From positions 288,001-352,000 of the forward strand of contig JAFATB010000025.1 in assembly GCA_019244185.1 (NCBI GenBank): 64,000 nt of DNA, read 5' to 3'. Numbering within the stretch: position 1 is the first letter of the stretch; every line of letters begins with the position of its first letter. This document shows, one piece after another, positions 16,905 through 55,678 of the stretch. Origin of the DNA: Acidobacteriota bacterium. GTDB lineage: Bacteria; Acidobacteriota; Thermoanaerobaculia; Gp7-AA8. Below the pieces are notes generated by a model, which saw nothing but the letters and a program-made list of their open reading frames with translations, ran no database searches and was not told the DNA's origin. The translations under genes and the position numbers were made by a program.

Positions 16905-17381
16905 ATGAAACTGCGCTCCGCGCTCGCGCTGCTGCTCCTCTGCACTCCCCTCTTCGCCGCCGCGCCCGCGCGCGTGGTCGTGCGCGGACCGTCCGGCGCG
17001 AAGACGTTCACGGCGGCGGAGCTCGCGGCGCTGCCGCAGACGACCGTGACGATCGACGAGCATGGGAAGCGCGGGACGTTTCGGGGAACGGAGCTCGCAC
17101 ATCTGCTGACGGCGGCCGGCGCGCCGTCGGGCGAGAAGCTGCGCGGCAAGGCCATCGCGAGCTACGTGCTCGTCGAAGCGGCCGACGGCTACCGCGCCGT
17201 CTTCGCCGCGACCGAGCTCGATCGCGGCTTCTCCGATCGCCCCGTGATTCTCGCGACGACGCGCGACGGCAAGCCGCTCGATGAGAAAGAAGGTCCGCTG
17301 CGCGTCGTCGTCTCGGGCGAGAAGCGTCCCGCGCGCTGCGTGCGACAGGTGACGCGCATCAGCCTCGTGACGGCGCCCTAA
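16905..17381 (+). CDS. Secreted molybdopterin-oxidoreductase-like domain protein
   Basis: Signal peptide, VEAADGYRAVF, RDGKPLDEKEGPLRVVV...ARCVRQV. Confidence 0.75.
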   Translation: MKLRSALALLLLCTPLFAAAPARVVVRGPSGAKTFTAAELAALPQTTVTIDEHGKRGTFRGTELAHLLTAAGAPSGEKLRGKAIASYVLVEAADGYRAVFAATELDRGFSDRPVILATTRDGKPLDEKEGPLRVVVSGEKRPARCVRQVTRISLVTAP

Positions 17382-18691: not shown

Positions 18692-18700
18692 GCCGACACG

Positions 18701-20044
<1,344 letters not shown>

Positions 20045-24630: not shown

Positions 24631-24647
24631 GATCGCGGTCGCTTAGC

Positions 24648-24662
24648 GCAACCGCGATGCCA
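24648..24662 (-). promoter_or_regulatory. Sigma54 (-24/-12) promoter of the MacAB-like operon
   Basis: Minus strand TGGCATCGCGGTTGC = GG-N10-GC, just upstream of the 24630 start. A cognate sigma54 activator is in the same operon. Confidence 0.8.
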
Positions 24663-24678
24663 TGCACGCTTCCTTTGT

Positions 24679-24691
24679 TTTCAACGATTTA
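24679..24691. promoter_or_regulatory. Putative IHF site
   Basis: TTTCAACGATTTA, one mismatch to WATCAANNNNTTR, in an AT-rich patch between the promoter and the palindromes. Confidence 0.5.
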
Positions 24692-24706
24692 CAGAGTCCG
24701 GAAGTC

Positions 24707-24747
24707 TGTCCGCGTGACAGGTGTCCGCGGACAGATGTCCGCGGACA
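24707..24747. promoter_or_regulatory. Three tandem palindromes TGTCCGCG(T)GACA, candidate enhancer (UAS) for the sigma54 activator
   Basis: tgtccgcgtgaca 24707-24719, tgtccgcggaca 24722-24733 and 24736-24747. Confidence 0.65.
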
Positions 24748-24768
24748 CGCTGCGATCCCATTGCCGCG

Positions 24769-27700
24769 TCAGTGCGATCCATTCGGCTGCGGGTTGGTCC
24801 GCTTGTGCGGATCCTTGTCCCAGTCGTCGATGGTCCTCGGCTTTCCGTCAGCGTTCTTGAAGTCCAGAATGCCGTTCAATGCCTTGGCGAGGATGTCCGT
24901 ATAAATCGAGCAATCGCCCTGGTTCTTCGTGATGTCCCAGACCTTGTTGTTGTACCAGACGAGCCCGATCCCCTCAGCTGCTTTGACCACCGTATTCGAG
25001 CCGAAGGGCACCTTGTTGCCGTCCTTCATGACGTAGTTCTCGACCACCCCTCGTATCACCGTCGTCTTGCTGTTCCACAGGCCGCCGCCGGCCGCGTCGG
25101 AATTGGAGTTGACGATGATCGTCGAGTGCGGATCTTTCTCCGTCAGCAGGTGATCCGCACCTTCGACGCGCGCGGTCGGAATGGGAGCATTTTCAGTCAC
25201 GAAGGCTTCCATCACCCCATCCTCCTTGTTCTTGACGAAGCCAACCACGGTGCTCACATGGGCGACCGGATGCTCATGAGCCGCCCGGAATCCCAGCACG
25301 ACCACGTCGCCTGGATTGACGTCCCACATCTGCCCGTACAGTCGCGCGATGACCTCGCCTGTCGGATCCCAGGCGTTCATCGGATTGTTCAGAACGTACG
25401 TATACCGGTTCCACGACTGCGGCGTGACCGCGTTCCCCGGTTTCGGGTCGCCGGAGAGGAAACGTCCCAGCGCCGCCGCGTAATAGCGGGCATGCATGTA
25501 ATCGATGTCGCTCTCGTCCTGCGCCGTGCCGTCGTCGTCGCGCTCGTGACCCGTGAACGCCATCCGCTCCGGCAGTTTCTGGTCGAAGAAGAGATTGCCG
25601 AACGGCATGTACTTCGAGCCGGTCGAGGTCGTGTTCAGCAGTTCGCCCTGCTGTCCGGTGACGAACCGCACCGATCCGAGGTGATCGACGTGCACGTCGT
25701 GCACCTCGGCCTGCCCCGACGCGTTGCGGCTGATCGTGTTCGTGAGGATGTCGCCCGCGTAGACGAAATCCTCTTTCCACGTCCACGTCGACGGTGCGCC
25801 GGCGCTGTATCGGCGCTCGACGTCGCGTAGGACGCGATGTCCGCCGGAACGGAACGACCACAGCTCGCGCACGCCGCTCGAGGCCGTGAAGTCGAGCACG
25901 CCCACGCGCTCGTCGTTTACGTCGTAAACATAGATGCGTCCGATGTTCGTGCCTTCCGTGTACGTGGCGCGGTTGAACGCGTCGTACTCGAAGTTCAACG
26001 TTGCCGTCGGATTCGGTGGAGTGAACTTGCGGAGATCGGGCATCGTCTTGACGTTTCCCGCATCGTCGTACTCGACGCCTCGTGCGGCTTGACCGCCCGA
26101 CGCCACGTTCTGCAGCCGGCTCGTGGTCTTGTCGACCGTGTAATTTATCGTGCCGCGCTGCTTGAGATTGCCGAAGCCGTCGTACCTGTAGGTTTCCGAC
26201 AGTGACCCGACTGCAGCATTGGCGATACGCAATGCGTTGTCGTACTGATACGAATCGCTCATGCCGATCTTCGAGATGTTGCCGGCACCGTCATAGGCAT
26301 AAAGGCCGGTATCCGAGGAGCCGTTCTTCCAATGCCAGACGATCTCGCCCACACGGGCGAGCTTCGAGTCCGTCTCGAGCGAAATGTCGTCATGCACGTC
26401 GGCACTGGCGAATTGCACGCCCTTGCGCAGACCGTTGAGGTAGTACGACAGCGTTGCTCGCGGCGTGTGCCCGGCTCCCTCGTTGACGTCCGTCAGCACG
26501 TCCGCGGTGTAACCGTAATTGAAGAAACGCGTAGTCGCGTCCGAGAACGGCGTCGGGTAGTCGATGCGGGTGAGGTTCCCCCGCCCGTCGTAGTCGTATT
26601 TCACGGTTCCGCTGAGGAACGAGGCCTCGACGCCTGCGGAGGAGACGGTCGACATCGAGGTCGTGACCTGCGTCAGCATGCCGCAGCGCAGGCTGCCGAT
26701 GCCGCAGTCGTCGTACGCGTATGCGCTGCCGACCTTGTACGTCGCGGGCTTGGCGGTCGCCGCCGGATCGCGAACATAGTTGTAGCGGTAGGCGGCGGCG
26801 AGCTGATTGCGCGGTCCGGCCGCGTCGTCGTTGGTGAAGTAATCGAAATGCTTGAGGAGCGGCGCGTTGCCGCGCGGCGTCGCTGCCGGCTGCCATACGT
26901 CGCGCAGCCGCTCGGCGCGGTCGTAGGCCATGCGCAGGTTCCACTGATTCAACGACGGGAGCGTCGTCCCGCCACCCAACCATGCGTAATCGACGGCCGT
27001 GGCGTGCCCGCGCGCGTCGTACTGGCTCTTGACGAGCACCTGGCCGCTCGGGCTGCGCATTTCGGGATCGGTCTCACTGGTCAGGAACCCGCGTCCGTCG
27101 TAGTCCATGCGCCGGGTCTGTGTGTCGCCGGTATCGATGGTCGTCAGCGTGGCCACGGTGAGGTGCGACAGTGCGTCGTAGCTGTATTCGGCGCGCACCG
27201 CTCCATCGTTGACGCGGAAGAGACGGCCGAAGGAATCGAGGTCGTGCGACATCTGCACGTCGTGCGGATTCCCGTTGCCCGCGTATTCGGGGGCGAGCGC
27301 GATGTCGTGCATCAGGGTGACCGTGCCGCGTCCGCCGACGTAGCTCGTATCGGTCGTATGGCCGTCGGCCTCGCGCACGCTCTTCTCGCGGTCGAAGACG
27401 TCGTAGAAATGCTTGTTCGTCCGCACCGCCTGCGGCAGCGTTTCCTCGAATACCTTTCCCGTCGGCGTATAACTGAGGATCGTCTCCGCCTGGCCCGCCG
27501 GCGTGTCGCGCAGCGTCGACGTCAGTCGTCCGAGGTAGTCGTACGTAAAGTACGAGGAAGGGCCGCCCGCGCGGGAAACCGACAGTTGGTTGATGCCGCC
27601 CGTGCCCGTTTTGCTCTTGTAGCCGAACGTCTGCGGAGTGGCCACTCCCGGCGGCGTGACGGTCTTCACCCGACCCAGTGCGTCGTAGGTATAGCCCGTG

Positions 27701-30501
27701 GTCAGACCGGAGGCGTCGGTCATCGACGACGGCAGCCCCGCTCCATGCTCGATGTCCGCGCTGCTCGTTTGCACATAGGTGCCGGCGCCGCAGCCGCGGT
27801 ATTCGGTCGACGCGACGCTTCCGTAGCGCATCGTCGTTTCGATCGCGTAGTCGCTGGTGACGTTCTGGCCCGGGGAAATCTGGTTACCGGACCATGCGCA
27901 CTCGCCGCTTGCCGCGGTGCAGAGGCCGCCGCCGTCGCCGCCGTAGTTCTCTTCGCGAGTGACCACTTCGTACACGCTTCCGGGCACGGCGGGGCCGCGC
28001 CGCGTGTAGAGGGTCAGCAGGTCGTTGGCGCCGTCCGGTACATCGACATCGCGCAGCGACGGCAGCGCTCCTTGTGCGTTCGGCAGCAGATTAACGGATG
28101 CCGACAAGTAGCTTTCGGTGAGGTGCCGCGTGGCCTTGAGATATCCGCGCGTCGTGTCGTACAGCGTATGCGTGCTGCCGATCCGCCCGTTTTCGATGAC
28201 CTTCGCCCGCGACGAGAGCTCGATGAGCCACGCGTGGAGTCGGTCCGGCATGCCGGTCGGATTGTCCGCGTTCGCCTGCCACGAAACAGTCGGGTTGTAC
28301 AGCGTGTACTCGCCGCGCATGTCGAAGTCGTTGCCGTCGGGATGTCCTTTCGCGGCCGCGCGGAAATTGCCGTACGTGTTCGTCTGGCGGAAGTGTCCGA
28401 GGCCGTCGAAATCCGAGAACATCGCCTCGGTGAACGGTACCTGCGGGACAGTCGTATTGAAGTTCACCGTCGCCGGGTCGTCGAAGTAGCGCGTGTGCTC
28501 GCTCGTCTCGCGTAGATTGATCTGCCGGCAGTCCGACGGCAGCATGTCGCCGCCGCATTCGTACGAGCTCTCCTCGAAATTCGCATACTTCGCACGGAGC
28601 CGCGTTGCGGTGGTCGCATCTTCATTTTCGTGGCGGTATGTCGGGAACATCCGCCGCACGGCGTCCTTGAGGTTTGTCACGAACGGTGAGCTGGGGGCCA
28701 TGCTGACCGAATACGTCTCGGACGACAGATAACGGGCAGCCTGCGACCGATCGTGCCGCTGCACGGTGTCGACCTTCTCCAAGTCCGGCGTGAACGGCGC
28801 GCCGTACCACTGCAGGCCGTATTCGACGTTGTGATAGTTGACCGTCAGGAGGCCGTTCGGATCGAGCATCGTGGCCAGGAATTCCACCGGCGCGCGGCAC
28901 AAAAGCGGCTCGCCCAAATCCCATTGGCCGTTATGGTTCGGATCGCCGTCATCCCAGCCGTCGTGGTCCGTGTCGATGAACCACCGGTAGTACGCTTGTC
29001 CGGAATAGCGCCACGTCGCTTTCACGGCGCCGCCGGCGTCGATCTCCTCGCGTTTCGCGATTCCGACGACGTTGCCGCCGCCATAGGCGCCATCACGCAC
29101 GCTTCCGTGGCACAGACGGGTGGTCGTCCCTCGGCCCTCATACGAATACTTGTAGCCGCCGCCGGTCGGCGCTTTGACGGACAACAACGCGCCGGACAGA
29201 CGGCTCGTCGGATACGAGAATCCGTCGGGGCACGCCGTCGTGCTGTTCCAGTTCGGAGCCGTACAGTAGGTGTACGCGAATCCGTCGCCGTCGGCGGTAG
29301 TCCCCGGATAGTAATCGAACTTCCATTGCCCGCCGCCCTCGGGCAGCGTCATCGATTGCAGTACCTGAAACGTCGTCGTGTGGTCGTCGTTGTACGGAAA
29401 CAGCAGTCCGTCTTTCGTCCACGGCAGCACCGACGTGCGCAGCATCCGCAGCGGCGTGTAGTCGAAACTGAAGACCATCGAATAATCGCCCTGCGGACCA
29501 GCCAGTTCGGCGCGCGTCAGCCGCTCGCCGATCCACGGATAGTCCGTCGGCGCGTAGTTGCCGTAGATGTCGAAGACGAGCCGGTGCTGCCGGTTGACGA
29601 GCAGCGACGTGCGTTCCGGCGACGTGCCGTGATAGTACGGATCGTCGCGCGTCTCCGCATCCGGCAGCGTCCCTTCGACGAGCGTCCAGATCCACTGTCC
29701 CGATGCGGGCCGCGTGTCCGAGCTCCGCTCGATCAAGAGCACATTTCCGAACGAATCGGAGATCCAGCGCAGAATCCACTGCGCCTTCCGCTGGCCGCAG
29801 CCGCTCACGCACGAGAAGTGCTTGACGGTGCCGTCGGGAAAGTCGACCTCCCGCTCGTTCGTGTCGCCGCCAATTTTGCGCAGGCGGAGGTAGCTTCCGT
29901 CCTGCGTGAACGAGGCGCCGACGTCATTGAAGCTCGTCGAATGCATGGACGGCTTGAACTCGTGCGACGCGCCGTTCGGCTCGGTGTACGTTCCGCTGAG
30001 GTAACCCTCCGGCGTCGCCACCGCACCGAAGCTGCCGAAGCCGACGCTCCAGCCGACGCCGGCGTTGCCGGTCGGCACCGGCTCCGATCCCGCAAAACCG
30101 CTGCCCTCCGGCGCGTCGAGCGTGAAGGTCATGCGATACGTCCGGATGCCGGACGAGCCCTGCGTCGTCACCGCGTCGACGATCGTGGTCGAGATCGTCG
30201 ACGGTGCGGTGTTGACCGCGTATTTATCGACGAACGCCCAAACGTCCCGCGAATGCTGGAGCGTGAACTGATAGGACAACGCACCGTTCGTTTTGTACTG
30301 CGGTCCAATGGGGACGGTGACGCTCAGATCGCCGCTGAACAGATTCACGTTGTCGAACTGCGAGATCTGGTACGACGTATTCGGCTGAAACCCGTGCGCA
30401 AGGATCGTGTCGACGCCCGCATACAAAGGCGCGCCGAAGAGCAATACCACAAGGACTACGGTTGCACCGTGCAGTGCGCGAAGCGGTTTGATCGGTTTCA
30501 T
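24769..30501 (-). CDS. Signal-peptide RHS/YD-repeat protein A (1910 aa) with permuted NlpC/P60-like C-terminal domain
   Basis: Sec-type signal (…GAPLYA-G), YD repeats (YTYDALGR, YDGAGNI), RHS core FTGHERD…YMHARYY…GRFLSGDP…NRYTYVLNNPMNAWDPTG. Confidence 0.9.
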   Translation of the reverse strand: MKPIKPLRALHGATVVLVVLLFGAPLYAGVDTILAHGFQPNTSYQISQFDNVNLFSGDLSVTVPIGPQYKTNGALSYQFTLQHSRDVWAFVDKYAVNTAPSTISTTIVDAVTTQGSSGIRTYRMTFTLDAPEGSGFAGSEPVPTGNAGVGWSVGFGSFGAVATPEGYLSGTYTEPNGASHEFKPSMHSTSFNDVGASFTQDGSYLRLRKIGGDTNEREVDFPDGTVKHFSCVSGCGQRKAQWILRWISDSFGNVLLIERSSDTRPASGQWIWTLVEGTLPDAETRDDPYYHGTSPERTSLLVNRQHRLVFDIYGNYAPTDYPWIGERLTRAELAGPQGDYSMVFSFDYTPLRMLRTSVLPWTKDGLLFPYNDDHTTTFQVLQSMTLPEGGGQWKFDYYPGTTADGDGFAYTYCTAPNWNSTTACPDGFSYPTSRLSGALLSVKAPTGGGYKYSYEGRGTTTRLCHGSVRDGAYGGGNVVGIAKREEIDAGGAVKATWRYSGQAYYRWFIDTDHDGWDDGDPNHNGQWDLGEPLLCRAPVEFLATMLDPNGLLTVNYHNVEYGLQWYGAPFTPDLEKVDTVQRHDRSQAARYLSSETYSVSMAPSSPFVTNLKDAVRRMFPTYRHENEDATTATRLRAKYANFEESSYECGGDMLPSDCRQINLRETSEHTRYFDDPATVNFNTTVPQVPFTEAMFSDFDGLGHFRQTNTYGNFRAAAKGHPDGNDFDMRGEYTLYNPTVSWQANADNPTGMPDRLHAWLIELSSRAKVIENGRIGSTHTLYDTTRGYLKATRHLTESYLSASVNLLPNAQGALPSLRDVDVPDGANDLLTLYTRRGPAVPGSVYEVVTREENYGGDGGGLCTAASGECAWSGNQISPGQNVTSDYAIETTMRYGSVASTEYRGCGAGTYVQTSSADIEHGAGLPSSMTDASGLTTGYTYDALGRVKTVTPPGVATPQTFGYKSKTGTGGINQLSVSRAGGPSSYFTYDYLGRLTSTLRDTPAGQAETILSYTPTGKVFEETLPQAVRTNKHFYDVFDREKSVREADGHTTDTSYVGGRGTVTLMHDIALAPEYAGNGNPHDVQMSHDLDSFGRLFRVNDGAVRAEYSYDALSHLTVATLTTIDTGDTQTRRMDYDGRGFLTSETDPEMRSPSGQVLVKSQYDARGHATAVDYAWLGGGTTLPSLNQWNLRMAYDRAERLRDVWQPAATPRGNAPLLKHFDYFTNDDAAGPRNQLAAAYRYNYVRDPAATAKPATYKVGSAYAYDDCGIGSLRCGMLTQVTTSMSTVSSAGVEASFLSGTVKYDYDGRGNLTRIDYPTPFSDATTRFFNYGYTADVLTDVNEGAGHTPRATLSYYLNGLRKGVQFASADVHDDISLETDSKLARVGEIVWHWKNGSSDTGLYAYDGAGNISKIGMSDSYQYDNALRIANAAVGSLSETYRYDGFGNLKQRGTINYTVDKTTSRLQNVASGGQAARGVEYDDAGNVKTMPDLRKFTPPNPTATLNFEYDAFNRATYTEGTNIGRIYVYDVNDERVGVLDFTASSGVRELWSFRSGGHRVLRDVERRYSAGAPSTWTWKEDFVYAGDILTNTISRNASGQAEVHDVHVDHLGSVRFVTGQQGELLNTTSTGSKYMPFGNLFFDQKLPERMAFTGHERDDDGTAQDESDIDYMHARYYAAALGRFLSGDPKPGNAVTPQSWNRYTYVLNNPMNAWDPTGEVIARLYGQMWDVNPGDVVVLGFRAAHEHPVAHVSTVVGFVKNKEDGVMEAFVTENAPIPTARVEGADHLLTEKDPHSTIIVNSNSDAAGGGLWNSKTTVIRGVVENYVMKDGNKVPFGSNTVVKAAEGIGLVWYNNKVWDITKNQGDCSIYTDILAKALNGILDFKNADGKPRTIDDWDKDPHKRTNPQPNGSH

Positions 30502-30639
30502 CGCGTCAGTCTCTCCGTTGCGGCGATTGATTGCGTTACTCGACTTACTTATCGTTCGGGCGGAATCGTTGGACCAGCGGCCGCAGGTCGTCGGCCGATG
30601 AACTGCTGATGCGCAGCCAGTGCGGCTCCCCCGCGACTC

Positions 30640-33600
30640 TTACTGTGGCTCGTTGGGAGGATGCTCGCCTGGATTCGTCTCCTGCAAGACCGTCGGGCCC
30701 GTGCCTCTCTCATTCGCGAGATCAGCCGCCGCCTTCGCATCGCGGTTCGCAAAGAGGCTTAGCAGCGCAATGCCCAACCAGTTCTGGACATCACCCCCGC
30801 CGTTGATACCGCACCACGTAGTGGTTTTCGTACCGATCACTGGAATCCCAACATCATTCGCCAACTTCGCACCGGCACCGCCCGTATAACAGCCGGCTAA
30901 AATGATCGCGGATGGCTTCGAGACCACCAAACCCAGCTCGAGCGAGTTGAGAGAGACGTAGAAATTGTTCGCGTTCTGCGGAATCGCTCTGAATTGGTGA
31001 ACATCCTGAACAGGTGCGGCATTGAGGTTCAAAAACGACGTGCCATTCTGAAATCCGAAGTGCCCCCACAAAACGAGCACATCGTCACTGTGCAGCCCAC
31101 GCAGCTCATCCATCATTTGAGAATAGGCATAGATCGTCGGCTGGCGAACCTGCACCTCGTGGCCTGTTGAAGCTTCCATTCGCTCGATCCAGGCTTTACT
31201 CGGTCCGTCTCCGCTGAAGTGGTAAATGACGGCCCGTGGCTCTTTTCCGTTGGGATCGTGAAATGCCAGTGGGTTGTTACGTACGTACGAGAAGCGGTTC
31301 CATCCTTGCAGCAAATCGGGTGTTCCCGACGCAGCGTCTCTGGACAGGAATCTTCCCAGCGACGGCGCGTAATAGCGCGCGTGCATGTAGTCGATGTCGC
31401 TCTCGTCCTGTGCCGTGCCGTCGTCGTCGCGCTCGTGGCCGGTGAAGGCCATCCGCTCCGGCAGTTTCTGGTCGAACACGAGATTGCCGAACGGCATGTA
31501 CTTCGAGCCGGTCGAAGTCGTGTTCAGCAGTTCGCCCTGCTGCCCGGTGACGAACCGCACCGATCCGAGGTGATCGACGTGCAGGTCATGAACCTCGACC
31601 TGCCCTGACGACGCGTTGCGGCTGATCGTGTTGGTGATGATGTCGCCCGCGTAGACGAAGTCCTCTTTCCACGTCCATGTGGAGGGCCCGCCCGCGCTGT
31701 ATCGCCGCTCGACGTCGCGCAGCACGCGCCGGCCGCCGGAGCGGAACGACCACAATTCGCGAATGCCGTTCGAAGCCATGAAATCGAGCACGCCGACGCG
31801 CTCGTCGTTCGCGTCGTAGACGTAGACGCGCCCGATGTTCGTGCCTTCGGTGTAGGTCGCGCGATTGAACGCGTCGTACTCGAAATTCAGCACGGCCGTC
31901 GGATTCGCGGGACTGAGGGTCCGCAGGTCCGGCATGGTCTTGATGTTGCCGGAGTCGTCGTACTCGACGCCCCGCGGCTGCTGAGTCCCGGACTTCACCG
32001 CCTGGAGCCGGCTCGTCGTGTTGTCGACCGTGTACTTCATCGTGCCGCGCTGCTTGAGGTTGCCGAAGCCGTCGTAGGTATAGGTTTCCGACAGCGAGCC
32101 GACGGTGGCATTCGCGAGCCGCAGCGCTTTGTCGTACTGAAAGGAATCACTGTTGCCGATCTTCGAGATGTTGCCGGCGCCGTCGTAGGCATAGAGCCCC
32201 GTATCGGAGGAGCCGTTTTTCCAGTGCCAGACGATCTGGCCGACGCGCGCCAGCTTCGCGTCGCTCTCGAGCGAGATCTCGTCGTGGACGTCCACGCTGG
32301 CGAACTGCACGCTCTTGCGCAGGCCGTTGAGGTAATACGCGAGCGTGGCCCGCGGCGTATGCGCCGCGCCCTCATTGACGTCCGTCAGCACGTCGGCCGT
32401 GTAGCCGTAGTTGATGAAACGCGGTGCGGCGTCCGAGAACGGTGTCGGGTAGTCGATGCGCGTCAGGTTGCCGCGAGCGTCGTAGTCGTACTTGACCGTT
32501 CCGCTGAGGAACGTCGTTTCGGCGCCGCCGGCGACCTTCGACATCGACGTCGTCACCTGCGTCAGCATCCCGCAGCGCGCGCTGCCGGGGCTGCACGGGT
32601 CGTACGCGTAGGCGCTGCCAACCACGTACGTCGCGGGGCTCGCGGTCGCGGCCGGATCCTTGACGTAGTTGTAGCGGGAAGCGGCAGCGAGCTGATTGCG
32701 CGAACCGGAGGGATCGTCGTTGGTGAAGTAATCGAAATGCTTGAGGAGCGGCGCGTTGCCTCGCGGCGTCGCCGCCGGCTGCCACACGTCGCGCAGCCGC
32801 TCGGCGCGGTCGTACGCCATGCGCAAACTCCACGGATTCAGCGACGGCAGCGTCGCCCCGCCGCCCGACCACGCGTAATCCACCGCCGTGACATGCCCGC
32901 GCGCGTCGTACTGGCTCTTGATGAGCACCTGGCCGTTCGGCCCGCGCATTTCAGGATCGGTTTCGCTGGTGAGGAAGCCGCGCCCGTCGTGATCGAAGCG
33001 CCGCGTCTGCGTGTCGGGCGAGTGTGTAACGGGATTGTCTTCGGTGGCGGTCAGCGTGGCGACGGTGAGATTCGACAGTGCGTCGTAGCTATATTCCGCG
33101 CGCACGGCGCCGTCGTTCGCGCGGAACAGGCGGCCGAAGGAGTCGAGATCGTGCGACATCTGCACGTCGTGCGGATTGCCGCTTCCTCCATTGCCGGCCG
33201 CGAGCTCGACGTCGTGCATCAGCGTGACCGCGCCCCGCCCGCCCACATACGTCGTGTCCGTAATGTGGCCGTCGGCACGGCGCACGCTCTTCTCGCGGTC
33301 CAACGCGTCATAGGAATGCTTGTTCGAGCGCGTGGCCTGGGGCAGAAGCTCCTCCAGGACTTTGCCCGTCGCCGTGTAGGTGAGCGTCGTCTCCGCTGGG
33401 CCGGTCGGCGTATCGCGGAGGGTGGACTTCAGGCGTCCCAGATCGTCATACGTAAAGTACGAGGCCGCGCCGCCGGAGCGCGCGACGGACAACTGATTGA
33501 TGCCTCCCGTGCCGGTTTTGCTTTTGTAGCCATAGGTCTGCGGCGTGGCCGCGCCGGGAGGCGTCACGGTCGTCACGCGTCCCAATGCATCGTACGCGTA

Positions 33601-36387
33601 GCCGGTCGTCAGGCCGGACGCGCCCGTCATCGACGAGGCGAGCCCGGAGCCGTGGTCGATGACGGCGCTGCTGCTCTGTACGTACGTGCCGGTACCGCAG
33701 CCGCGATATTCCGTCAGCGCGGGGCTGCCGTAACGGAGTGTCGTCTCCAGCGCATAGTCGCTGGTGACGCCCTGTCCGACCGCAATCTGCCCGCCGGACC
33801 ACGCGCATTCACCGCTTGCCGCGGTGCAGAGACCTCCGCCGTCGCCGCCGTAATCCTCCTCGCGCGTGACCACTTCGTAAACGCTGCCGGGCGCGGCCGG
33901 GCCGCGGCGCGTGTACACGGTCAGCAGATCGTCCGCGCCATCGGGCACGTCCACGTCGCGCAGCGACGGGATCTCTCCTTGTGCGTTGGGAAGCAGCCAC
34001 ACCGAATTCGTGAGACTGCTTTCCTTCAGGCGACGCGTAGCTTTGAGATAGCCGCGCGTCTTGTCGTACAGCGTATGCGTACTGCCGATGCGGCCGTTCT
34101 CGATGATTTTCGTGCGGGACGAGAGCTCGATGAGCCACGCATGCAGACGGTCCGGCATGCCCGTGGGATTGTTCGCGTCCGGCTGCCACGTCACGTCGGG
34201 GTTGTAGAACGTGTACTCGCCGCGCATGTCGAAGTCGCCGCTGTCGGGATGCCCCTTGGCGGCCGCGCGAAAATTGCCGTAGCTGTTCGTCTGGCGGAAG
34301 TGACCGAGGCCGTCGAAATCCGAGAACATCGCCTCGGTGAACGGGATCTGCGTGGTGTTGTTGAAGGCGACCGTCGACGGGTCATCGAAATAACGCGTGT
34401 GCTCGCTGGTCTCGCGCAGGTTGATCTGGCGGCAGTCGGACGGCAGCATGTCGCCGCCGCATTCGTAGGCGCTCTCCTCGAAGTTTGCGTACTTCGCGCG
34501 CAGTTTGGTCGCGGTCGTCGCGTCTTCGTTGTCGCGGCGATACGTCCGGAAGAGCCTGCGCACGGCGTCGCTCAGATCGGTGACGAAGGGCGACGTCGCG
34601 GCCATGCTGACCGAATACGTCTCGGATGACAGATAACGCGCCGTTTGCGATTGATCGTGGCGCTGCACGGTGTCGACCTTTTCCAGATCGGGCGAGAACG
34701 GTGCGCCGTACCACTGCAGGCCGTAATCGACGTTGTGATAGTTGATCGTCAGGAGGCCGTTCGGATCGAGGGCGGTCGCCAGGAACTCCACCGGCGAGCG
34801 GCACAAGAGCGGCTCGCCCAGGTCCCATTGGCCATTGTGGTTCGTGTCGCTGTCGTCCCAGCCATCGTGGTTCGTGTCGATGAACCACTTGAAGTAGCCT
34901 TGTCCGGAATAGCGCCAAGTCGCTTTCACGGAGCCGTCAGCGTCGATCTCCTCGCGTTTTGCGACTCCGAGGACGGTGCCGCCGCCGTAGGACCCGGCAT
35001 CGCGTGCGTGTCCGCCGCAGAGGCGGATCGGCGTGCCGCGGCCTTCGTATGCATATTGATATCCGCCGCCGGTCGGCGCCTTGACGGAACGTAATGCTCC
35101 CGCGAGACGGCTGGTGGGATACGAATACCCGTTGGGACACGGCGTGGTGCTGTTCCAGTTCGGCGCCGTACAGTAGGTATACGAGATACCGTCGCCGTCG
35201 CTCGTGCTGCCGGGGTAATAGTCGAACTGCCATTTGCCCGCGCCTTCGGGCAGCGTCATCGACTGCAGCATCTGGAACGTGGTGGTGTGCGACGGGACGT
35301 TGTACGGAAACAGGAGCCCGTCTTTCGTCCACGGCAGGACCGTCGCCCGCAGCATGTTGACGGGCGTGTAGTCGAAGCTGAAAACCATCGAATCGTCACC
35401 CTGCGGGCCCGCCAGTTCCGCGCGCACCAGCCGCTCGCCGATCCATGGATACGGCGTCTGCCGGTAGTCGCCGTAGATGTCGAACACCAGCCGGTGCTGC
35501 CGGTTGACGAGGAGGGACGTCCGTTCCCCGGAGGAGCCGTGGTAATACGGATCGTCGCGCGTTTCCGCATCGGGCAGCGTGCCCTCGACGAACGTCCAGA
35601 TCCATTGTCCCGATGCCGGCCGCGTGTCCGAGCTGCGCTCGACCACCAGCACGTTGCCGAACGAGTCGGAAATCCAGCGAAGGATCCACTGTGCCTTCGC
35701 CTGGCCGCAGGCGCTCACGCACGAGAAGTGTTTGACGGTGCCGTTCGGGAAATCGATTTCGCGCTCGTTCGTATCGCCGCCGACTTTGCGCAGGCGGAGG
35801 TAGCTGCCGTCCTGCGTGAAGGACGCGCCGACGTCATTGAAGCTCGTCGAGTGCATGGACGGCTTGAACTCATGCTCGGCGCCGTCCGCCTCGGTGTACG
35901 TGCCGCTGAGATAGCCCTCCGGCACCGACACGGCGCCGAAACTGCCGAACCCGACGTTCCAGCCGACACCCGCGTTTCCCATCGGCACGGGCTCTGACCC
36001 GCCGTAATCGCTGGACGGCGCGTCGAGCGAAAACGTCGTCGTCTCGCGCACGGCCATCCAGCGGTGGCTGCCGGAGGCCGTGACGGTGTCGACGATCGTC
36101 GTGGTGTAGGAACTGGGCGCGGTATCGATGCCGTGCCAGTCGATGAACGCCCATACGGCGCGGGAATGCTGGAGCGAGAACTGATACGAGAGCGAGCCGT
36201 TCGTCTTGTACTTCGGTCCGATGGGGATATTGACATTGAGCTCGCCGCTATAGAGGTTCACGTTGTCGAACGGCGACACCTGATACGCGGTGTTCGGCTG
36301 AAAACCGTGCGCGAGAATCGTGTCGACGCCCGCGTGCAGCGGGGCCGCCAGGAGCAACATCCACAACAGCAGCACCGCGCGCTTCAT
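30640..36387 (-). CDS. Signal-peptide RHS/YD-repeat protein B (1915 aa) with caspase/clan-CD-like C-terminal domain
   Basis: Signal MKRAVLLLWMLLLAAPLHA-G. Collinear paralogue of RHS A up to GRFLS; core ends NNPLAFHDPNG. Confidence 0.9.
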   Translation of the reverse strand: MKRAVLLLWMLLLAAPLHAGVDTILAHGFQPNTAYQVSPFDNVNLYSGELNVNIPIGPKYKTNGSLSYQFSLQHSRAVWAFIDWHGIDTAPSSYTTTIVDTVTASGSHRWMAVRETTTFSLDAPSSDYGGSEPVPMGNAGVGWNVGFGSFGAVSVPEGYLSGTYTEADGAEHEFKPSMHSTSFNDVGASFTQDGSYLRLRKVGGDTNEREIDFPNGTVKHFSCVSACGQAKAQWILRWISDSFGNVLVVERSSDTRPASGQWIWTFVEGTLPDAETRDDPYYHGSSGERTSLLVNRQHRLVFDIYGDYRQTPYPWIGERLVRAELAGPQGDDSMVFSFDYTPVNMLRATVLPWTKDGLLFPYNVPSHTTTFQMLQSMTLPEGAGKWQFDYYPGSTSDGDGISYTYCTAPNWNSTTPCPNGYSYPTSRLAGALRSVKAPTGGGYQYAYEGRGTPIRLCGGHARDAGSYGGGTVLGVAKREEIDADGSVKATWRYSGQGYFKWFIDTNHDGWDDSDTNHNGQWDLGEPLLCRSPVEFLATALDPNGLLTINYHNVDYGLQWYGAPFSPDLEKVDTVQRHDQSQTARYLSSETYSVSMAATSPFVTDLSDAVRRLFRTYRRDNEDATTATKLRAKYANFEESAYECGGDMLPSDCRQINLRETSEHTRYFDDPSTVAFNNTTQIPFTEAMFSDFDGLGHFRQTNSYGNFRAAAKGHPDSGDFDMRGEYTFYNPDVTWQPDANNPTGMPDRLHAWLIELSSRTKIIENGRIGSTHTLYDKTRGYLKATRRLKESSLTNSVWLLPNAQGEIPSLRDVDVPDGADDLLTVYTRRGPAAPGSVYEVVTREEDYGGDGGGLCTAASGECAWSGGQIAVGQGVTSDYALETTLRYGSPALTEYRGCGTGTYVQSSSAVIDHGSGLASSMTGASGLTTGYAYDALGRVTTVTPPGAATPQTYGYKSKTGTGGINQLSVARSGGAASYFTYDDLGRLKSTLRDTPTGPAETTLTYTATGKVLEELLPQATRSNKHSYDALDREKSVRRADGHITDTTYVGGRGAVTLMHDVELAAGNGGSGNPHDVQMSHDLDSFGRLFRANDGAVRAEYSYDALSNLTVATLTATEDNPVTHSPDTQTRRFDHDGRGFLTSETDPEMRGPNGQVLIKSQYDARGHVTAVDYAWSGGGATLPSLNPWSLRMAYDRAERLRDVWQPAATPRGNAPLLKHFDYFTNDDPSGSRNQLAAASRYNYVKDPAATASPATYVVGSAYAYDPCSPGSARCGMLTQVTTSMSKVAGGAETTFLSGTVKYDYDARGNLTRIDYPTPFSDAAPRFINYGYTADVLTDVNEGAAHTPRATLAYYLNGLRKSVQFASVDVHDEISLESDAKLARVGQIVWHWKNGSSDTGLYAYDGAGNISKIGNSDSFQYDKALRLANATVGSLSETYTYDGFGNLKQRGTMKYTVDNTTSRLQAVKSGTQQPRGVEYDDSGNIKTMPDLRTLSPANPTAVLNFEYDAFNRATYTEGTNIGRVYVYDANDERVGVLDFMASNGIRELWSFRSGGRRVLRDVERRYSAGGPSTWTWKEDFVYAGDIITNTISRNASSGQVEVHDLHVDHLGSVRFVTGQQGELLNTTSTGSKYMPFGNLVFDQKLPERMAFTGHERDDDGTAQDESDIDYMHARYYAPSLGRFLSRDAASGTPDLLQGWNRFSYVRNNPLAFHDPNGKEPRAVIYHFSGDGPSKAWIERMEASTGHEVQVRQPTIYAYSQMMDELRGLHSDDVLVLWGHFGFQNGTSFLNLNAAPVQDVHQFRAIPQNANNFYVSLNSLELGLVVSKPSAIILAGCYTGGAGAKLANDVGIPVIGTKTTTWCGINGGGDVQNWLGIALLSLFANRDAKAAADLANERGTGPTVLQETNPGEHPPNEPQ

Positions 36388-39300
36388 CGCGAGGCCTCCG
36401 TTGCCGCGTCCGTATGTGCTTTGGCTCTGGCCGCGTACATGATCGAGTCCGGCTGCTGGAGCGCCGCCGAGGTGTCATAGGCGCGGAAGGTGGTCACGAT
36501 GCCGACCCACGAGCCGGTGCCGCCCGCGGAGACGGTATGTCCGTAGGCGCCGAGGGACGTGACCATGCGCTCGTGGACTGCGGTGGTCAGGATGTTGCCG
36601 GCGACGGTCTCGGCGATTTCCGTGAAGCCGTTGGTGGGCGACGAGAAGCTCGTATTGGCGGACGTCGCGATCGCGGTGACGACCACTTCCTTCGACTGGT
36701 AGGTCTGCGTCGTCAGGCCGCTCGAGAGCGTGCCGGACGAGGTCGCGGCGCCGTCGAGCGCGGTGCGATCCTCGGGCGACGCGGCGGCCATGTTGAGGTA
36801 TTCGATCAGCTGCAGGGTCTGGTCGCGATAATTGCCGATCGTGAACGTCTCCGTCGTCCTCCCGGCCGGACTGTTGGCGTAGTAGTACATCGACGTCTTG
36901 ACGTTGTTCCACTCGTACGTATTGGCCAGCTGCCAGCCCGCCGGCACCGTGTAGTTGCCGATCGGATAGCTGTTGTTCGAGGCGGAGACGACCGCCACGA
37001 GCAGCGAGCCGGCGCGCGTCGCCTTCGGCCATGTGCCCGTAATGGCCAGTTGCGAGTTCGCGCTGAACGCGGCGGTCTGCCGGTTCTTCATCTGGGACGT
37101 CACGGTGATCGTCGCCGTGGCGCTGCGCGCGAAGTAATTCGGATTACAGCCGCTCGTCACTTTCACCCAGTACGAGGTGGTCGTATTGAGCCCGCCGGTC
37201 GAATAGGTATCCGACGTCGCGCCCGTAATCGCCACGCTGGCCGGATCACCGCTGATTCCGCGGTACCACTGATAGAGGTAGTTGCCGTCGCCGGAGACCG
37301 TCACCCGCAGCGTCGACGAGCCTCCGGGCGAGGTGGAGTCCGACGACGGCGAGGTCACGACGAAGGGCGACTTGCAGACATAGACCTGCGCGACCGCGCT
37401 GTCGCTATAAAGGCCGCACGAATTCGAGACGCGCACGAAGTACGTCGTGGTCGAGGACGGATTCGCGTAATAGCTGCCGGTCGTCGCGCCGCTGATCAGC
37501 GTCGCGTTCTGCGGCGTGCCGGAGTACCACTGGTAGCTGATGTCGCCGTCACCCGACGCGGCGACGGTGAGGTTCGTCGACTCGCCGTAGTTGATCGTTC
37601 GCGACGTCGGCGAGCTGGTGACCGACGGCGTATGCGTGCAGACGTCGAGCGGCACGCTCCGCGTCGTATTGAGATAGGTCGCATTGATCTGCACCGGTGT
37701 GCGCGAAGCAACGACGCCGGGTGCGACGAGGAAGTTTACGGCGGTCTGATTGGCGCCGAGGGTCACGGTCGCCGGCACGTTCGCTGCGGACGTGTTGTCG
37801 GTCGACAGCGGGATCGCGACGGCACTCGTCGGCGCGACACTGACGGTGAGCGTGGCCGTGGTGGTGCTGCCCATCGACAATTTCGCCGGATTGAAGGTGA
37901 TGCCGGCGATCGGCGCCGGGAACGTGTGCGACGGCACGACGTCGTAATTCAGCGGCGCCGGACAGGCGCGCGTGTCGATGCCGTTGCCCATCATGCGCGT
38001 GATGAACACCGCCGCCTGCGCGCGGTCGACGAGATCGGAGGGACAGAACTGATACGGTCCGCAGCCGATGCTCACGCCGCGGTTCTTGACGTCGCTGATC
38101 CAGTTCGCGGCCCAATACGACGGGCACGGGACGTCCGAGAAATCATTGCCGCACGCGGGCGACGCATAGGACGGCCCGAGTTTGGTCCGCAGGACGAAGA
38201 TCGCCAGCTCGGCGCGCGTCAGCGTCTGATCGGGTGAATACGCGCCGCCGCCGGTGCCGGAGGTCAGGCCTTCTGCTTTCAGCTGCCCGATCCAGGTGGC
38301 GTATGCGTTCGTGCACGGCACGTCCGTGAACGGACCGGCTCCCGTGCACGCCGGCGGCTGGTATGTCGCGCCGTGTTCCGCCACGAGGAGCCACTTCGCG
38401 ATTTCGGCGCGCGTGAGGTTCGTCTGCGGGCAGAACTGCAGATGCGGGCTGCAGGCCGTGGCAACCCCGTTGTGCAGGACGGACTCGACGCTGCCGTACG
38501 CCCAGTGGCTCACCGGCACGTCGATGAAGCTCGAGCCGACGTGAATGGTCACGGGGCTGCCGGGCGTCGCCACTCCGTTCGACAGATACGTCTCGCGGAA
38601 CGTGATGTCATTGTGCGGCTGGCCGTTGCGGATGCCGGGGCTGGCCACGCGTAACGCGTAGCAGCGTCCGGCGGTCCAGCAATCCGAAATTCCGCTGGAA
38701 ATGTCGTAGCTCTGAACGGAGTCGACCAGCGTCGGGGCCGCGTAATACGAGTCCGTCGTGGTGAGGTTCCCTGCCGTCACCGCGACCAGCGTCGTGGACG
38801 CGGTCGTCCGCCACTGCGGCTCGACGACGACCGTCTCTCCCGGTTCGACGATGCCATTGAGATTGCCGTTGGTCGTGTTCCACGCCGAATTCGCGTACCA
38901 CGACTGCACGTGCGCGTCGACGAGCACGCCGCCCGCTTTCGCCGCGACCATCGGCCCCACGGGTACGGTCTGGTGCGCGCTGCCCGGTAATCCCGCGTCG
39001 TCGATCGTAGTGAGAGTGGCGTTGTAGCAGCCGGCCGCCGCGTATTGCTTCGTCGCGGTCGCCGTCGTCGCGGTCGTGTTGTCGCCGAAGTTCCAGTTCC
39101 ACGCCGTGATCTGGCCGTCGTCTTTGGAAGCCTCGCTGCCGAACGTGCAGTCCCGAACCTTACAGTTGACGCGGATGGCCGGAACGGGCGGCGTGTTCGA
39201 CACCACCACGTCCTGCGTGGCCGTCCCTTCCATGCCGTCCGCATCGCGCACGCTCGCGGCGACGCGATATGTGCCCGTCTTCGCAAACGTATGCTGCACG

Positions 39301-40475
39301 AAGGTATAGGGATTCTGCGTGTCGGTCTCGTTGTAGATCGTCCCGTCGCCGAAATCCCACGTAATACCGCTCCATGGGAACGGGCCGTCGTCCACAATGC
39401 GGCGCGTGAACGTGTAATCGCGACGGTTCGGGTCGGTCCGCGCGATGTCCATGGTCACGGTCGGACTGCTATTCGTCGCCACGACCGGGATCTGGAAGTC
39501 GGTCGGATCGTCGAAGTGCGTGCCGGGATTCCCATCGTCCGGCGGCTGATAGCGCAGCGTGGCGATGTACGTTCCGCTGCGCGCATAGAAGGTCCACGTA
39601 CGGCACGTGGTCGGACAGAGGCCGAGGGGGACGAAATTGAGCAGCGTCGGAGAGTTGCCGCAGCCGAGGTTGTAGCCGCGCGGCAACTGTGGCGGCACCG
39701 CGCAATCGGTGGAGACGGGGCTCCAGTTCATGTAAATCTGCGTTCCCGGCGGGAAGGTATCGAGGCCGCCGATGGTGATGGCCGGCGCGATACCGCCGTT
39801 CGGCTCGAGCGTCCACTGTCCCTGCCGGCCATACGCCACCTGGACGTCGACGCGGCCCGTGAGACTCTCGCCCGAGTAGTAATCGACCGTGCAGGAGACG
39901 CGATAGAGCCCGTCGATCGAATACACGTGCAGTTCGTTGGCGCGGTAGACGTAGCCGGGCAGGATCGGCTGCCAGTGATCGCCGAAGTCCCACGTGTACG
40001 ACTTGATGCCGGTGGTGACCTTCGGCGCCGCCGCGAAACGACAGACGCCGTTCGTGCACGAGTACGTGATCGTCACATCGCCCGATGGCGCGTGCACGTA
40101 CACGGTCGCCTCGGACGTCGTGCCCGGCTGGTTCGTGTCCGTGATCTGGTATTTGAACGTGTAGTCGGCCAGCGTCTGCGGGGGCAGGTAACTGATCGAC
40201 TTCTTGTCGTCGCTGATCGAAACGGTCCCGATCTGCGGCTGGCCCGGCGTCACGCCGGTGATCTCGAGATTTCCTGACGGATCGACAATGTCGTTCTGCA
40301 GCACCGGGATCGTGATCCGCTGGTTCGGCGCGCTCACGAACGCGGCGTCGTCGACCGCGCCGGGCGCGATCTGCGCGAAGTGTCCGCCGCCGCAGTAATT
40401 CGTATTGACCGCGGCACCACCACCCGTCGAAACAAGACTCAGCATCAGAATGAACACACCAAGGACACGCTTCAT
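36384..40475 (-). CDS. Large secreted surface protein: Ig-like (Big_9) + PKD domains + 3 SLH-like repeats + Ig domains
   Basis: Signal peptide; AVDDAA…IPVLQND; three W[DN]FGD PKD motifs; FxDVP…W…P…LTRAE SLH-like repeats x3; YQWY Ig repeats. ATGA overlap with RHS B. RBS GGGAGG favours the second ATG. Confidence 0.85.
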   Translation of the reverse strand: MKRVLGVFILMLSLVSTGGGAAVNTNYCGGGHFAQIAPGAVDDAAFVSAPNQRITIPVLQNDIVDPSGNLEITGVTPGQPQIGTVSISDDKKSISYLPPQTLADYTFKYQITDTNQPGTTSEATVYVHAPSGDVTITYSCTNGVCRFAAAPKVTTGIKSYTWDFGDHWQPILPGYVYRANELHVYSIDGLYRVSCTVDYYSGESLTGRVDVQVAYGRQGQWTLEPNGGIAPAITIGGLDTFPPGTQIYMNWSPVSTDCAVPPQLPRGYNLGCGNSPTLLNFVPLGLCPTTCRTWTFYARSGTYIATLRYQPPDDGNPGTHFDDPTDFQIPVVATNSSPTVTMDIARTDPNRRDYTFTRRIVDDGPFPWSGITWDFGDGTIYNETDTQNPYTFVQHTFAKTGTYRVAASVRDADGMEGTATQDVVVSNTPPVPAIRVNCKVRDCTFGSEASKDDGQITAWNWNFGDNTTATTATATKQYAAAGCYNATLTTIDDAGLPGSAHQTVPVGPMVAAKAGGVLVDAHVQSWYANSAWNTTNGNLNGIVEPGETVVVEPQWRTTASTTLVAVTAGNLTTTDSYYAAPTLVDSVQSYDISSGISDCWTAGRCYALRVASPGIRNGQPHNDITFRETYLSNGVATPGSPVTIHVGSSFIDVPVSHWAYGSVESVLHNGVATACSPHLQFCPQTNLTRAEIAKWLLVAEHGATYQPPACTGAGPFTDVPCTNAYATWIGQLKAEGLTSGTGGGAYSPDQTLTRAELAIFVLRTKLGPSYASPACGNDFSDVPCPSYWAANWISDVKNRGVSIGCGPYQFCPSDLVDRAQAAVFITRMMGNGIDTRACPAPLNYDVVPSHTFPAPIAGITFNPAKLSMGSTTTATLTVSVAPTSAVAIPLSTDNTSAANVPATVTLGANQTAVNFLVAPGVVASRTPVQINATYLNTTRSVPLDVCTHTPSVTSSPTSRTINYGESTNLTVAASGDGDISYQWYSGTPQNATLISGATTGSYYANPSSTTTYFVRVSNSCGLYSDSAVAQVYVCKSPFVVTSPSSDSTSPGGSSTLRVTVSGDGNYLYQWYRGISGDPASVAITGATSDTYSTGGLNTTTSYWVKVTSGCNPNYFARSATATITVTSQMKNRQTAAFSANSQLAITGTWPKATRAGSLLVAVVSASNNSYPIGNYTVPAGWQLANTYEWNNVKTSMYYYANSPAGRTTETFTIGNYRDQTLQLIEYLNMAAASPEDRTALDGAATSSGTLSSGLTTQTYQSKEVVVTAIATSANTSFSSPTNGFTEIAETVAGNILTTAVHERMVTSLGAYGHTVSAGGTGSWVGIVTTFRAYDTSAALQQPDSIMYAARAKAHTDAATEASR

Positions 40476-40691
40476 CGTCATCCTCCCGCGTGGTGGACCT
40501 ATGGACGTTTGTCTGGATGGATTGCCATCCGTCGATGCGCCACAATGAGGCGCAACGGGTGAGCTCGTCGAAGGTGTTGTGACGAATCAGCCGGATGTAG
40601 CCGCCGGTCCGCCGTTTCGCGTGACGAGCGGGAACGGCCCGGCAATGCAGACGGCCGCGAGCCCATCGAACGCCGTGCTATCGTCGGCGCG

Positions 40692-51331: not shown

Positions 51332-51532
51332 ATGCGACCGCGCATCGCATTCACGACATCGCCCCATATCATTCATCCCACCGCGCGACGCGTGAATGCG
51401 ATCGCGCATCGCATTGACGATATCGCCGCATATCCTTCATCCCATCGCGCGACGCATTCATGCGATCGCGCATCGCATTCACGAGATCGCCCTATATCCT
51501 TCATCCCATCGCGCGAAGCGTTCATGCGATCG
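51332..51532. repeat. Intergenic tandem repeat, 64-bp unit x3 plus a partial copy, with internal palindrome
   Basis: Units start at 51332, 51396, 51460 and 51524 (atgcgatcgcgcatcgcattcacga…catatccttcatcccatcgcgcg…). Confidence 0.85.
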
Positions 51533-51596
51533 ATCGCCGGCATTCAGCGTCGCAACGGCATTGCGTCATCTACCCTGCGCGCTTCAGAATCCGGCG

Positions 51597-53727: not shown

Positions 53728-55674
<1,947 letters not shown>

Positions 55675-55678
55675 GCGG

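Follow-up and report, generated by a model that had tools for sequence, protein, structure and literature searches.

Predicted Sec-dependent polymorphic RHS toxins, duplicated and accompanied by an accessory protein encoded in trans, in an Acidobacteriota bacterium

A 64,000-nucleotide stretch of DNA from an Acidobacteriota bacterium (Thermoanaerobaculia; Gp7-AA8; GenBank assembly GCA_019244185.1, contig JAFATB010000025.1, positions 288,001 to 352,000), hereafter the window, was analyzed for a locus at which the minus strand carries three long open reading frames (ORFs) head to tail: P0001, encoding a secreted protein with PKD, SLH and Ig-like modules, followed by P0002 and P0003, encoding two RHS proteins termed RHS B and RHS A, respectively. 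The locus is real and coherent; it encodes Sec-dependent polymorphic RHS toxins, duplicated with two different tips, an accessory protein in trans, and no adjacent immunity gene. That these parts constitute a two-part extracytoplasmic toxin system, which would need neither a type VI secretion system (T6SS) nor TcA, is considered somewhat probable. The genes and the gaps following the two RHS genes are (positions of the window):

36384..40481, minus strand: P0001, 1365-aa secreted accessory protein (ORF list; Pfam; orthologue in genome G263 40% identical over 1393 aa)
30640..36387, minus strand: RHS B (P0002), 1915 aa (ORF list; Pfam; TIGR)
24769..30501, minus strand: RHS A (P0003), 1910 aa (ORF list; Pfam; TIGR)
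30502..30639, no strand: gap of 138 bp between RHS B and RHS A, no credible ORF (ORF list)
24631..24768, no strand: gap of 138 bp between RHS A and an HlyD/MacB-type ABC (ATP-binding cassette) operon, with TGTCCGCGGACA-type palindromes, no credible ORF (ORF list)

The start of RHS B and the stop of P0001 share 4 nt, and RHS A begins 138 bp after RHS B; thus, the translational coupling and the spacing claimed in an earlier note on this DNA agree with the ORF coordinates. GC content at third codon positions (GC3) was between 0.83 and 0.87 for the three genes, as in real genes. According to ORF lists and GC3, neither 138-bp gap contained a coding-looking ORF, so that no credible ORF follows either tip, again as claimed. 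The same note had reported no PAAR, VgrG, Eag or TcA/TcB gene in the window, and none of the 42 window ORFs scanned matched PAAR, VgrG, DUF1795 or the Tc families.

All three proteins begin with what looks like a Sec-type signal peptide, with a basic n-region, a hydrophobic core (maximal 10-residue Kyte–Doolittle hydropathy 2.8–3.2) and an A-x-A-like cleavage site, as judged by eye and Kyte–Doolittle hydropathy, not by SignalP:

40410..40481, minus strand: signal peptide of P0001, residues 1–24 (cleavage site by eye)
36331..36387, minus strand: signal peptide of RHS B, residues 1–19, site LHA/G (by eye)
30418..30501, minus strand: signal peptide of RHS A, residues 1–28, site LYA/G (by eye)

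The three proteins contain 26, 15 and 14 cysteines. Because of the conserved cysteines and the leaders, the RHS proteins were considered extracytoplasmic. Sec-type leaders on all three proteins, and Sec-type export independent of PAAR, VgrG and TcA, had both been proposed before and gain support from the leaders and from the absence of such genes in the window.

RHS A and RHS B are identical in 1403 of 1715 residues (82%) and diverge thereafter; at the DNA level, identity is likewise 82% (over 5048 nt) and stops near codon 1684. The previously noted collinearity over ~1700 aa, followed by tips of ~200 aa unrelated to each other, was thereby confirmed. Pfam detected RHS_repeat (PF05593) in both proteins and nothing else, TIGR01643 was matched as well, and identity ceases at the end of the Rhs-associated core (TIGR03696; residues 1630–1714 in RHS B and 1631–1715 in RHS A), after which the variable tip follows. 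At the other end, the shell follows the leader directly; adhesion modules sit on P0001 instead. An Asp-rich, DxDxDG-like loop, DTDHDGWDDGDPNHNGQWD, is present as described before. The GC content of the shells was 0.646 (RHS B) and 0.638 (RHS A), that of the tips 0.567 and 0.591, respectively; tips lower in GC than their shells are as expected of swapped-in toxin cassettes. The parts of the RHS proteins concerned are:

31246..31500, minus strand: Rhs-associated core of RHS B, residues 1630–1714, ending in DPNG (TIGR03696)
25357..25611, minus strand: Rhs-associated core of RHS A, residues 1631–1715, ending in DPTG (TIGR03696)
34819..34875, minus strand: Asp-rich DxDxDG-like loop of RHS B, residues 505–523 (sequence; low-confidence insertion of the structural model)
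30643..31242, minus strand: tip B (P0041), 200 aa, orphan, WGH and AGC motifs, GC 0.567 (sequence)
24772..25353, minus strand: tip A (P0042), 194 aa, permuted NlpC/P60-like by motif, PGD followed by His32 and then Asp147-Cys148, GC 0.591 (motifs)

Neither tip had a Pfam match. Past its PGD motif, tip A has a histidine (His32) and an Asp-Cys pair (Asp147, Cys148) that are invariant in the three sequences aligned. Relatives of tip A form the ends of P0004 and P0043, and more were found in three of 400 other genomes of the class (G147, G370 and G107), with the motif retained. From the order of His and Asp-Cys after PGD, tip A was read as a putative Cys/His hydrolase of the permuted NlpC/P60-like kind. 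Tip B contains the motifs LWGHFG and ILAGCYTG, and an Atlas CHAT cluster (0.92) appeared at rank 6, which gives a lead, and only a lead, to a clan-CD-like (caspase/CHAT) peptidase.

The accessory protein P0001 is composed, in this order, of the signal peptide, a Big_9/cadherin-like N-terminus, three PKD repeats, a middle domain, three SLH repeats, Ig-like repeats and a C-terminal domain:

38952..40094, minus strand: PKD repeat region of P0001, ~residues 130–510 (Pfam PKD_4 three times, PKD twice)
37962..38528, minus strand: three SLH repeats of P0001, residues 652–840 (Pfam and motif)
37092..37634, minus strand: Ig-like repeats of P0001, ~residues 950–1130 (Pfam; similar modules within the RHS ORFs of 14 other loci)
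36387..37091, minus strand: C-terminal domain of P0001, residues 1131–1365, 235 aa (no family match)

PKD_4 was matched in three stretches (E 1.4e-29) and PKD in two, and SLH exceeded its cut-off (31.4 bits). Ig_3 scored just 23 bits against a cut-off of 30, so that, of the signal peptide, PKD, triple SLH and Ig architecture assigned to P0001 before, the Ig part is sub-threshold. Judged by motif, the first residues of the SLH repeats are 652, 718 and 781; the repeats align with those of the homologue in genome G103 and are the part of P0001 best kept in the G263 orthologue (50–68% identity). The C-terminal domain matched no known family and is not present in the G103 homologue. PADLOC gave no match for P0001, tip A or tip B.

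Searches of PDB sequences with the RHS N-terminal profile, P0002 and both tips returned no meaningful match. A structural model of RHS B residues 1–1000, built from 58 aligned sequences (mean predicted local distance difference test [pLDDT] 78.2; predicted template modeling score 0.83), was all-beta. Foldseek returned 138 matches at E ≤ 1e-3, and the top ones were RHS shells only: T6SS Rhs proteins, TcB-TcC, teneurins and the bacterial teneurin-like protein 9ifo. In a second-look alignment, T6SS Rhs shells ranked first (Z 16–17, up to 16.9), but only 365–485 residues were aligned. The longest collinear alignment was that with TcdB2-TccC3 (4o9x; 675 residues, model 24–1000 versus chain 49–1400, Z 13.6), and YenB (9c4k_P) was aligned over 653 residues; 9ifo_A aligned over its shell only (Z 14.6, chain 722–1654). 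The beginning of the model resembles the N-terminal domain of SpvB and TcB:

35239..36246, minus strand: SpvB-N/TcB-N-like domain of RHS B, model residues 48–383 (6p0x_A, Z 10.5, root-mean-square deviation 4.0, 236 of 320 residues)

The N-terminal 1000 residues of RHS B are thus predicted to form a shell collinear with TcB, including an SpvB-N-like start. Over the aligned span, RHS B is ~400 residues shorter than TcB. Insertions of low confidence were at residues 396–422, 458–469 and 501–528, with the Asp-rich loop among them; they lie where TcB has its propeller. No β-propeller was confidently predicted in the model of residues 1–1000. TcA_TcB_BD (PF18276) had no match in the own genome of the locus, but none of 14 control genomes gave a match either.

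Among known RHS systems, WapA resembles RHS A and RHS B in its signal peptide, its RHS repeats and its polymorphic toxin at the C-terminus, and it also has wall-binding repeats. WapA is from monoderms, has the wall-binding part in cis and lies next to its immunity gene wapI, whereas RHS A and RHS B come from a diderm lineage, their accessory is encoded in trans, and no immunity gene adjoins them. T6SS Rhs effectors (RhsA, Tse5, Tse15 and RhsP) have the Rhs core in common with RHS A and RHS B and gave the best structural Z scores for the shell, but they lack a signal peptide, start with a PAAR or VgrG-binding region, and come with chaperones and immunity genes. The own genome does contain T6SS genes (PAAR, VipB sheath); these are on contig C6, not at the locus. 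The BC (TcB-TcC) cocoon of Tc/ABC toxins (TcdB2-TccC3, YenB-YenC) shares the Rhs-associated core with DPxG and the variable caged tip, and is likewise without an adjacent immunity gene. It differs in that RHS A and RHS B are each a single polypeptide with a Sec leader, and in that the partner is an SLH/PKD/Ig protein or, in the wider family, a protein of ~220 aa (see below), not TcA. A classical TcB/TcC-like RHS gene is present elsewhere in the own genome (contig C7:6974-7468); its open frame spans 2113 aa and includes a bona fide SpvB domain.

Two further classes were compared, from PMC3482391 and PMC13018210. RHS toxins of the Sec/type II secretion system (T2SS) class likewise start with a signal peptide, contain RHS repeats and carry a polymorphic toxin at the C-terminus (PMC3482391). 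Bacterial teneurin-like proteins (PMC13018210; PDB 9ifo) are also Sec-targeted YD-shell polymorphic toxins with caged tips of ~15–20 kDa; they have adhesion, S-layer or wall-binding modules and have been reported in Acidobacteriota (PMC13018210). Their adhesion modules are in the same polypeptide, whereas those of the window are encoded by the separate gene P0001. Moreover, teneurin-like proteins contain TIP, FN-plug and NHL domains, of which neither NHL nor FN-plug was detected in RHS A and RHS B by Pfam, and almost all their ORFs are followed by an immunity gene (PMC13018210), whereas none is adjacent to RHS A or RHS B.

The distribution of the RHS family was surveyed in proteins, genomes and metagenomes. 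A word-indexed search with RHS residues 1–880 retrieved 39 proteins, the named ones being Thermoanaerobaculia proteins or proteins of Acidobacteriota metagenome-assembled genomes. Close relatives (41–83% identity) carry other tips, including a YwqJ-like deaminase and a barnase-type ribonuclease. By six-frame search, 64 of 401 genomes of the class, with the own genome and the unpublished G175 counted in, have the N-terminal module; the majority of matches span residues ~1–270 only. A metagenome scan with the N-terminal profile A3 yielded 80 loci, 22–30% identical over the first 800 residues. It did not recover P0004 and P0010-12, the closest relatives, whose neighborhoods lie outside the survey. 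The RHS start could be placed in 77 of the 80 loci; in most of these, a leader and then an HPNxxRGF-type motif were recognized by eye at the start of the protein. Scanning the genome contigs with alignment A2 gave 32 pattern matches, none of them confirmed.

In 68 of these loci, the sequence extends for 700 nt or more ahead of the RHS start; 53 of the 68 have a leader-bearing ORF of ~220 aa directly upstream of the RHS gene, which it overlaps by 4 nt in 31 of the 53. The hidden Markov model (HMM) used for this count was built from the ORFs counted; a seed HMM made from five genome-derived members served as a control and recovered 42 of the 44 other ~220-aa partners at E ≤ 1e-3. One of the two partners missed (L107) is a small SLH protein. 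None of 10 members scanned had a Pfam match. The own genome encodes one such partner (L002:7280-7981, contig C2, minus strand; E 3e-25), upstream of a third RHS paralogue, which carries Ig_7 domains. This secreted family may be the generic partner of signal-peptide RHS proteins. When compared by hhalign, the ~220-aa partner and the PKD partners showed no relationship beyond chance.

The RHS genes nearest to those of the window have no ~220-aa partner and a PKD-type partner instead. In G263, an orthologue of P0001 (40% identity over 1393 aa; PKD, SLH and Ig) is located directly upstream of a tandem RHS pair, and in G371 an ORF with PKD and SLH ends just ahead of the RHS gene. Homologues with Big_9, PKD and SLH lie directly downstream of the RHS gene in G103 (31% over 882 aa; its locus L039 is identical to metagenome locus L058) and in metagenome locus L057 (43% over 700 aa). 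PKD partners without SLH are upstream of the RHS gene in G383, on contig C26 of the own genome and in L056. The own-genome case (L001:4877-13185) consists of an 826-aa PKD protein 20 bp upstream of an 1803-aa RHS protein that is 30% identical to RHS B. In L056 (L056:9968-15388), the tip of the PKD-partnered RHS protein has an H...G...S-x-G-C-x-R pattern, presumably resembling the catalytic motifs of L,D-transpeptidases (YkuD), and a 192-aa ORF overlaps the RHS end. In a tree of 58 N-terminal halves, all seven PKD-labeled rows together with L057 and L058 formed one set with a Shimodaira–Hasegawa-like support of 100, which is not a bootstrap, is from FastTree only and refers to rows that are kin.

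The modules of P0001 also occur within RHS genes. When P0001 was searched against 102 loci, its SLH region matched within the RHS ORF in four (L059, L069, L083 and L110), with Pfam SLH over the cut-off in three of them, and its Ig-like region (~residues 940–1130) did so in 14. The four SLH cases are RHS proteins of the type with a ~220-aa partner; in them, a triple SLH repeat interrupts the second half of the shell. Thus, the linkage of SLH/PKD genes to RHS genes that the earlier note had proposed to survey was found as adjacency in five loci and in both gene orders, and in addition as fusion within ORFs. That the modules are in trans here and in cis elsewhere, together with adjacency in two gene orders, is the main argument for P0001 working with the RHS proteins, to which we infer that it binds physically.

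In the two-part system proposed above, P0001, RHS B and RHS A would be exported by Sec, and the tip would be cut at the DPxG core and stay caged, which would render it harmless while passing through the periplasm of the producer. P0001 would bind the cocoon, its SLH and Ig/PKD modules providing adhesion or targeting, and the complex would exit the cell and act on other organisms, with tip A as a Cys/His hydrolase on an envelope target and tip B perhaps as a second Cys/His hydrolase.

Several observations weigh against this proposal. The leaders look like Sec-type signal peptides by eye and hydropathy without SignalP, and Pfam SpvB was undetected in the RHS N-terminus (E ≤ 5). The assignment of tip A rests on motifs, three aligned sequences and an Atlas lead to Peptidase_C92 that is itself weak (0.76); the enzyme nature of tip B, a lead only, rests on the two short motifs and the one Atlas cluster. 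A search of 1.84 billion representatives gave no homologue of tip B, and its single-sequence model was poor (pLDDT 36.9) and was not used for a fold search. Both copies of the orthologous tandem RHS pair of G263 are frameshifted (L036, G263:C4:86000-105999); they may be pseudogenes, or the frame changes may be assembly errors. In all three other genomes with a tip A relative, this relative is followed by an exported ORF of 340–440 aa, which may be a candidate immunity protein; if so, tip A would be used against kin-like bacteria, and the strain should need protection. Finally, a YD shell is reported not to have protected E. coli from chimeric tips (PMC13018210).

Anchoring by SLH repeats normally requires wall polymers pyruvylated by CsaB. 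The corresponding family, PS_pyruv_trans (PF04230), was not found in the own genome (G000, 98.9% complete), nor in G263, G103 or G383; it was present in G347, and the positive control was detected in 9 of 14 genomes. The whole own genome gave only two SLH matches. Self-anchoring is weakened by the failure to find PF04230, and the SLH ligand may sit on other cells. That P0001 is anchored through SLH to the wall of the producer itself and displays RHS cocoons there, as a contact weapon or display system, would be in keeping with the three SLH repeats being its best conserved part, with its translational coupling to RHS B, and with the proposal that teneurin-like RHS toxins are surface-displayed via adhesion, S-layer or wall-binding domains (PMC13018210). 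However, in a diderm, a wall-anchored protein would lie under the outer membrane, not at the surface. Together with the missing CsaB and the paucity of SLH matches, this makes the envelope-anchored display suggested in the earlier note unlikely.

At the loci with an SLH/PKD partner, no immunity-type ORF was found past the tip for RHS A and RHS B of the window and for both G263 copies (ORF lists only); in G103 and L057, the tip is followed by the PKD/SLH partner and in G371 by a subtilase, not by an immunity-type ORF. Of 25 ORFs scanned downstream of RHS genes in the wider family, four are orphan RHS C-terminal cassettes and six belong to families that are named for immunity or associated with it: Imm32, Imm35, DUF4265, DUF4279 (twice) and DUF6843. 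The DUF6843 case is the C26 locus of the own genome, where a 140-aa, lipoprotein-like ORF overlaps the end of the RHS gene as a candidate immunity gene. The lack of adjacent immunity genes that the earlier note had reported for the two RHS genes of the window was thus also seen at the other SLH/PKD-partner loci examined, but not in the wider family with its downstream immunity-type genes. The exported ORFs after the tip A relatives belong to no family and are not significantly similar to one another (best E 0.015), and the three had no match in the own genome (tblastn, HMM); since they are too diverged, this absence does not exclude an unlinked immunity gene. As this RHS clade is generally without an adjacent immunity gene, its usual target is probably not a sibling cell.

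It could accordingly be supposed that the toxins hit targets which the producer does not expose, such as eukaryotic grazers, fungi or naked monoderm walls, with P0001 as the target-binding part; no immunity gene would then be needed. Tc toxins, which have the closest collinear fold, act on eukaryotes without immunity genes. A producer without CsaB, whose SLH ligand may be on other cells, and the lack of immunity-type ORFs at the SLH/PKD-partner loci examined would suit this supposition, as would PMC3482391, in which no immunity family is given for several peptidase tips (Tox-NlpC/P60, Tox-PL1 and Tox-PL3) and missing immunity is tied to use against hosts. The exported candidate immunity ORFs following tip A relatives in three of three other genomes and the classical immunity genes of the wider family argue against it, and only ORF lists and GC3 were used to call ORFs absent; the supposition is considered improbable. 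Even more doubtful is a joint proposal, a two-component RHS weapon without a secretion system, in which an adhesin would aim a Sec-exported TcB-like cocoon and, in the SLH clade, would read foreign wall glycopolymers, so that no immunity is needed. Because the producer lacks CsaB, the glycopolymers recognized would not be of its own making. This doubt applies to the proposal as a whole, i.e., for Acidobacteriota of this class, with an SLH/PKD/Ig adhesin or, in most relatives, a conserved ~220-aa one, in trans or fused, and with Cys/His hydrolases as the caged cargo brought to foreign cells.

Two other explanations are both very improbable. That the RHS pair is a decaying or silent duplicate array, which has lost its immunity genes and has no present function, could be read from the lack of an immunity ORF and the frameshifted G263 copies (no RNA run covering the stretch was listed, which counts neither for nor against), but neither 5.7-kb ORF is interrupted, their GC3 of 0.83 is that of coding sequence, they are 82% identical with conserved cysteines and core motifs, and their tips are wholly different, as expected of a diversified arsenal. 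That P0001 is an unrelated surface or adhesion protein merely adjoining the RHS genes is already disfavored: PKD, Ig and SLH proteins are common among secreted proteins and adjacency as such is weak evidence, but the 4-nt start/stop overlap, adjacency in five loci and two gene orders, the fusion of SLH and Ig modules into RHS ORFs, and another secreted partner in the same upstream slot in 53 of 68 family loci all speak for a connection.

The earlier note had left room for the architecture being an already described family. The general class is indeed in print: PMC3482391 lists a Sec/T2SS class of RHS toxins and a TcdB/TcaC class whose members have a signal peptide, an SpvB domain and a propeller, and PMC13018210 describes bacterial teneurin-like YD-shell toxins with Sec signals and fused adhesion or S-layer domains. 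What appears to be new relative to these sources is that the accessory is encoded in trans and that adjacent immunity genes are missing throughout the clade. No description of a trans-encoded RHS partner was found in the literature searched (main texts), and none of the Rhs papers listed by a full-text search contained the phrase "S-layer homology" or "PKD domain".

How RHS or teneurin-like cocoons reach their targets without T6SS or TcA is an acknowledged open question; for teneurin-like toxins, the delivery mechanism remains to be elucidated (PMC13018210). The locus and its family offer a handle on this question, as the RHS gene is almost always coupled to a partner gene. In the clade of the window, the partner has recognizable SLH and Ig/PKD modules that elsewhere are fused in the shell, which makes it possible to test whether the cocoon is aimed by a separate adhesin. 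The clade-wide lack of adjacent immunity genes raises the question of whom the toxins serve against, and TcB-like cocoons with Sec leaders are extended to a poorly studied soil phylum.

Beyond RHS A, the next gene encodes an HlyD-type adaptor (23359-24630), which begins 138 bp past the RHS A stop. It is the first gene of a MacB-type ABC operon, after which come a sigma-54 response regulator and a kinase. This operon was set aside as an exporter of the RHS proteins, which, at 200 kDa, are unlikely cargo for such pumps. Palindromes of the TGTCCGCGGACA type are repeated at 24690-24760, between RHS A and the operon; they may be putative activator binding sites, as the operon ends with the sigma-54 activator and kinase (17378-20044). 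A scan for promoters and terminators was uninformative (no promoter-like site; seven terminator-like sites versus 11.4 expected).

Two other regions of the window contain ORFs of possible relevance to toxins. A 212-aa ORF (51396-52034, plus strand) gave a sub-threshold match to Tc-R-P (24.9 bits; cut-off 27), a phosphatase family of polymorphic toxin systems. At ~15 kb from the RHS locus, a 412-aa ORF (55608-56846, minus strand) contains an eCIS_core domain (PF13699, 103.9 bits) and adjoins two ORFs with IPT/TIG domains (56858-57940 and 58082-59260, both minus strand); it may be another toxin-like gene.

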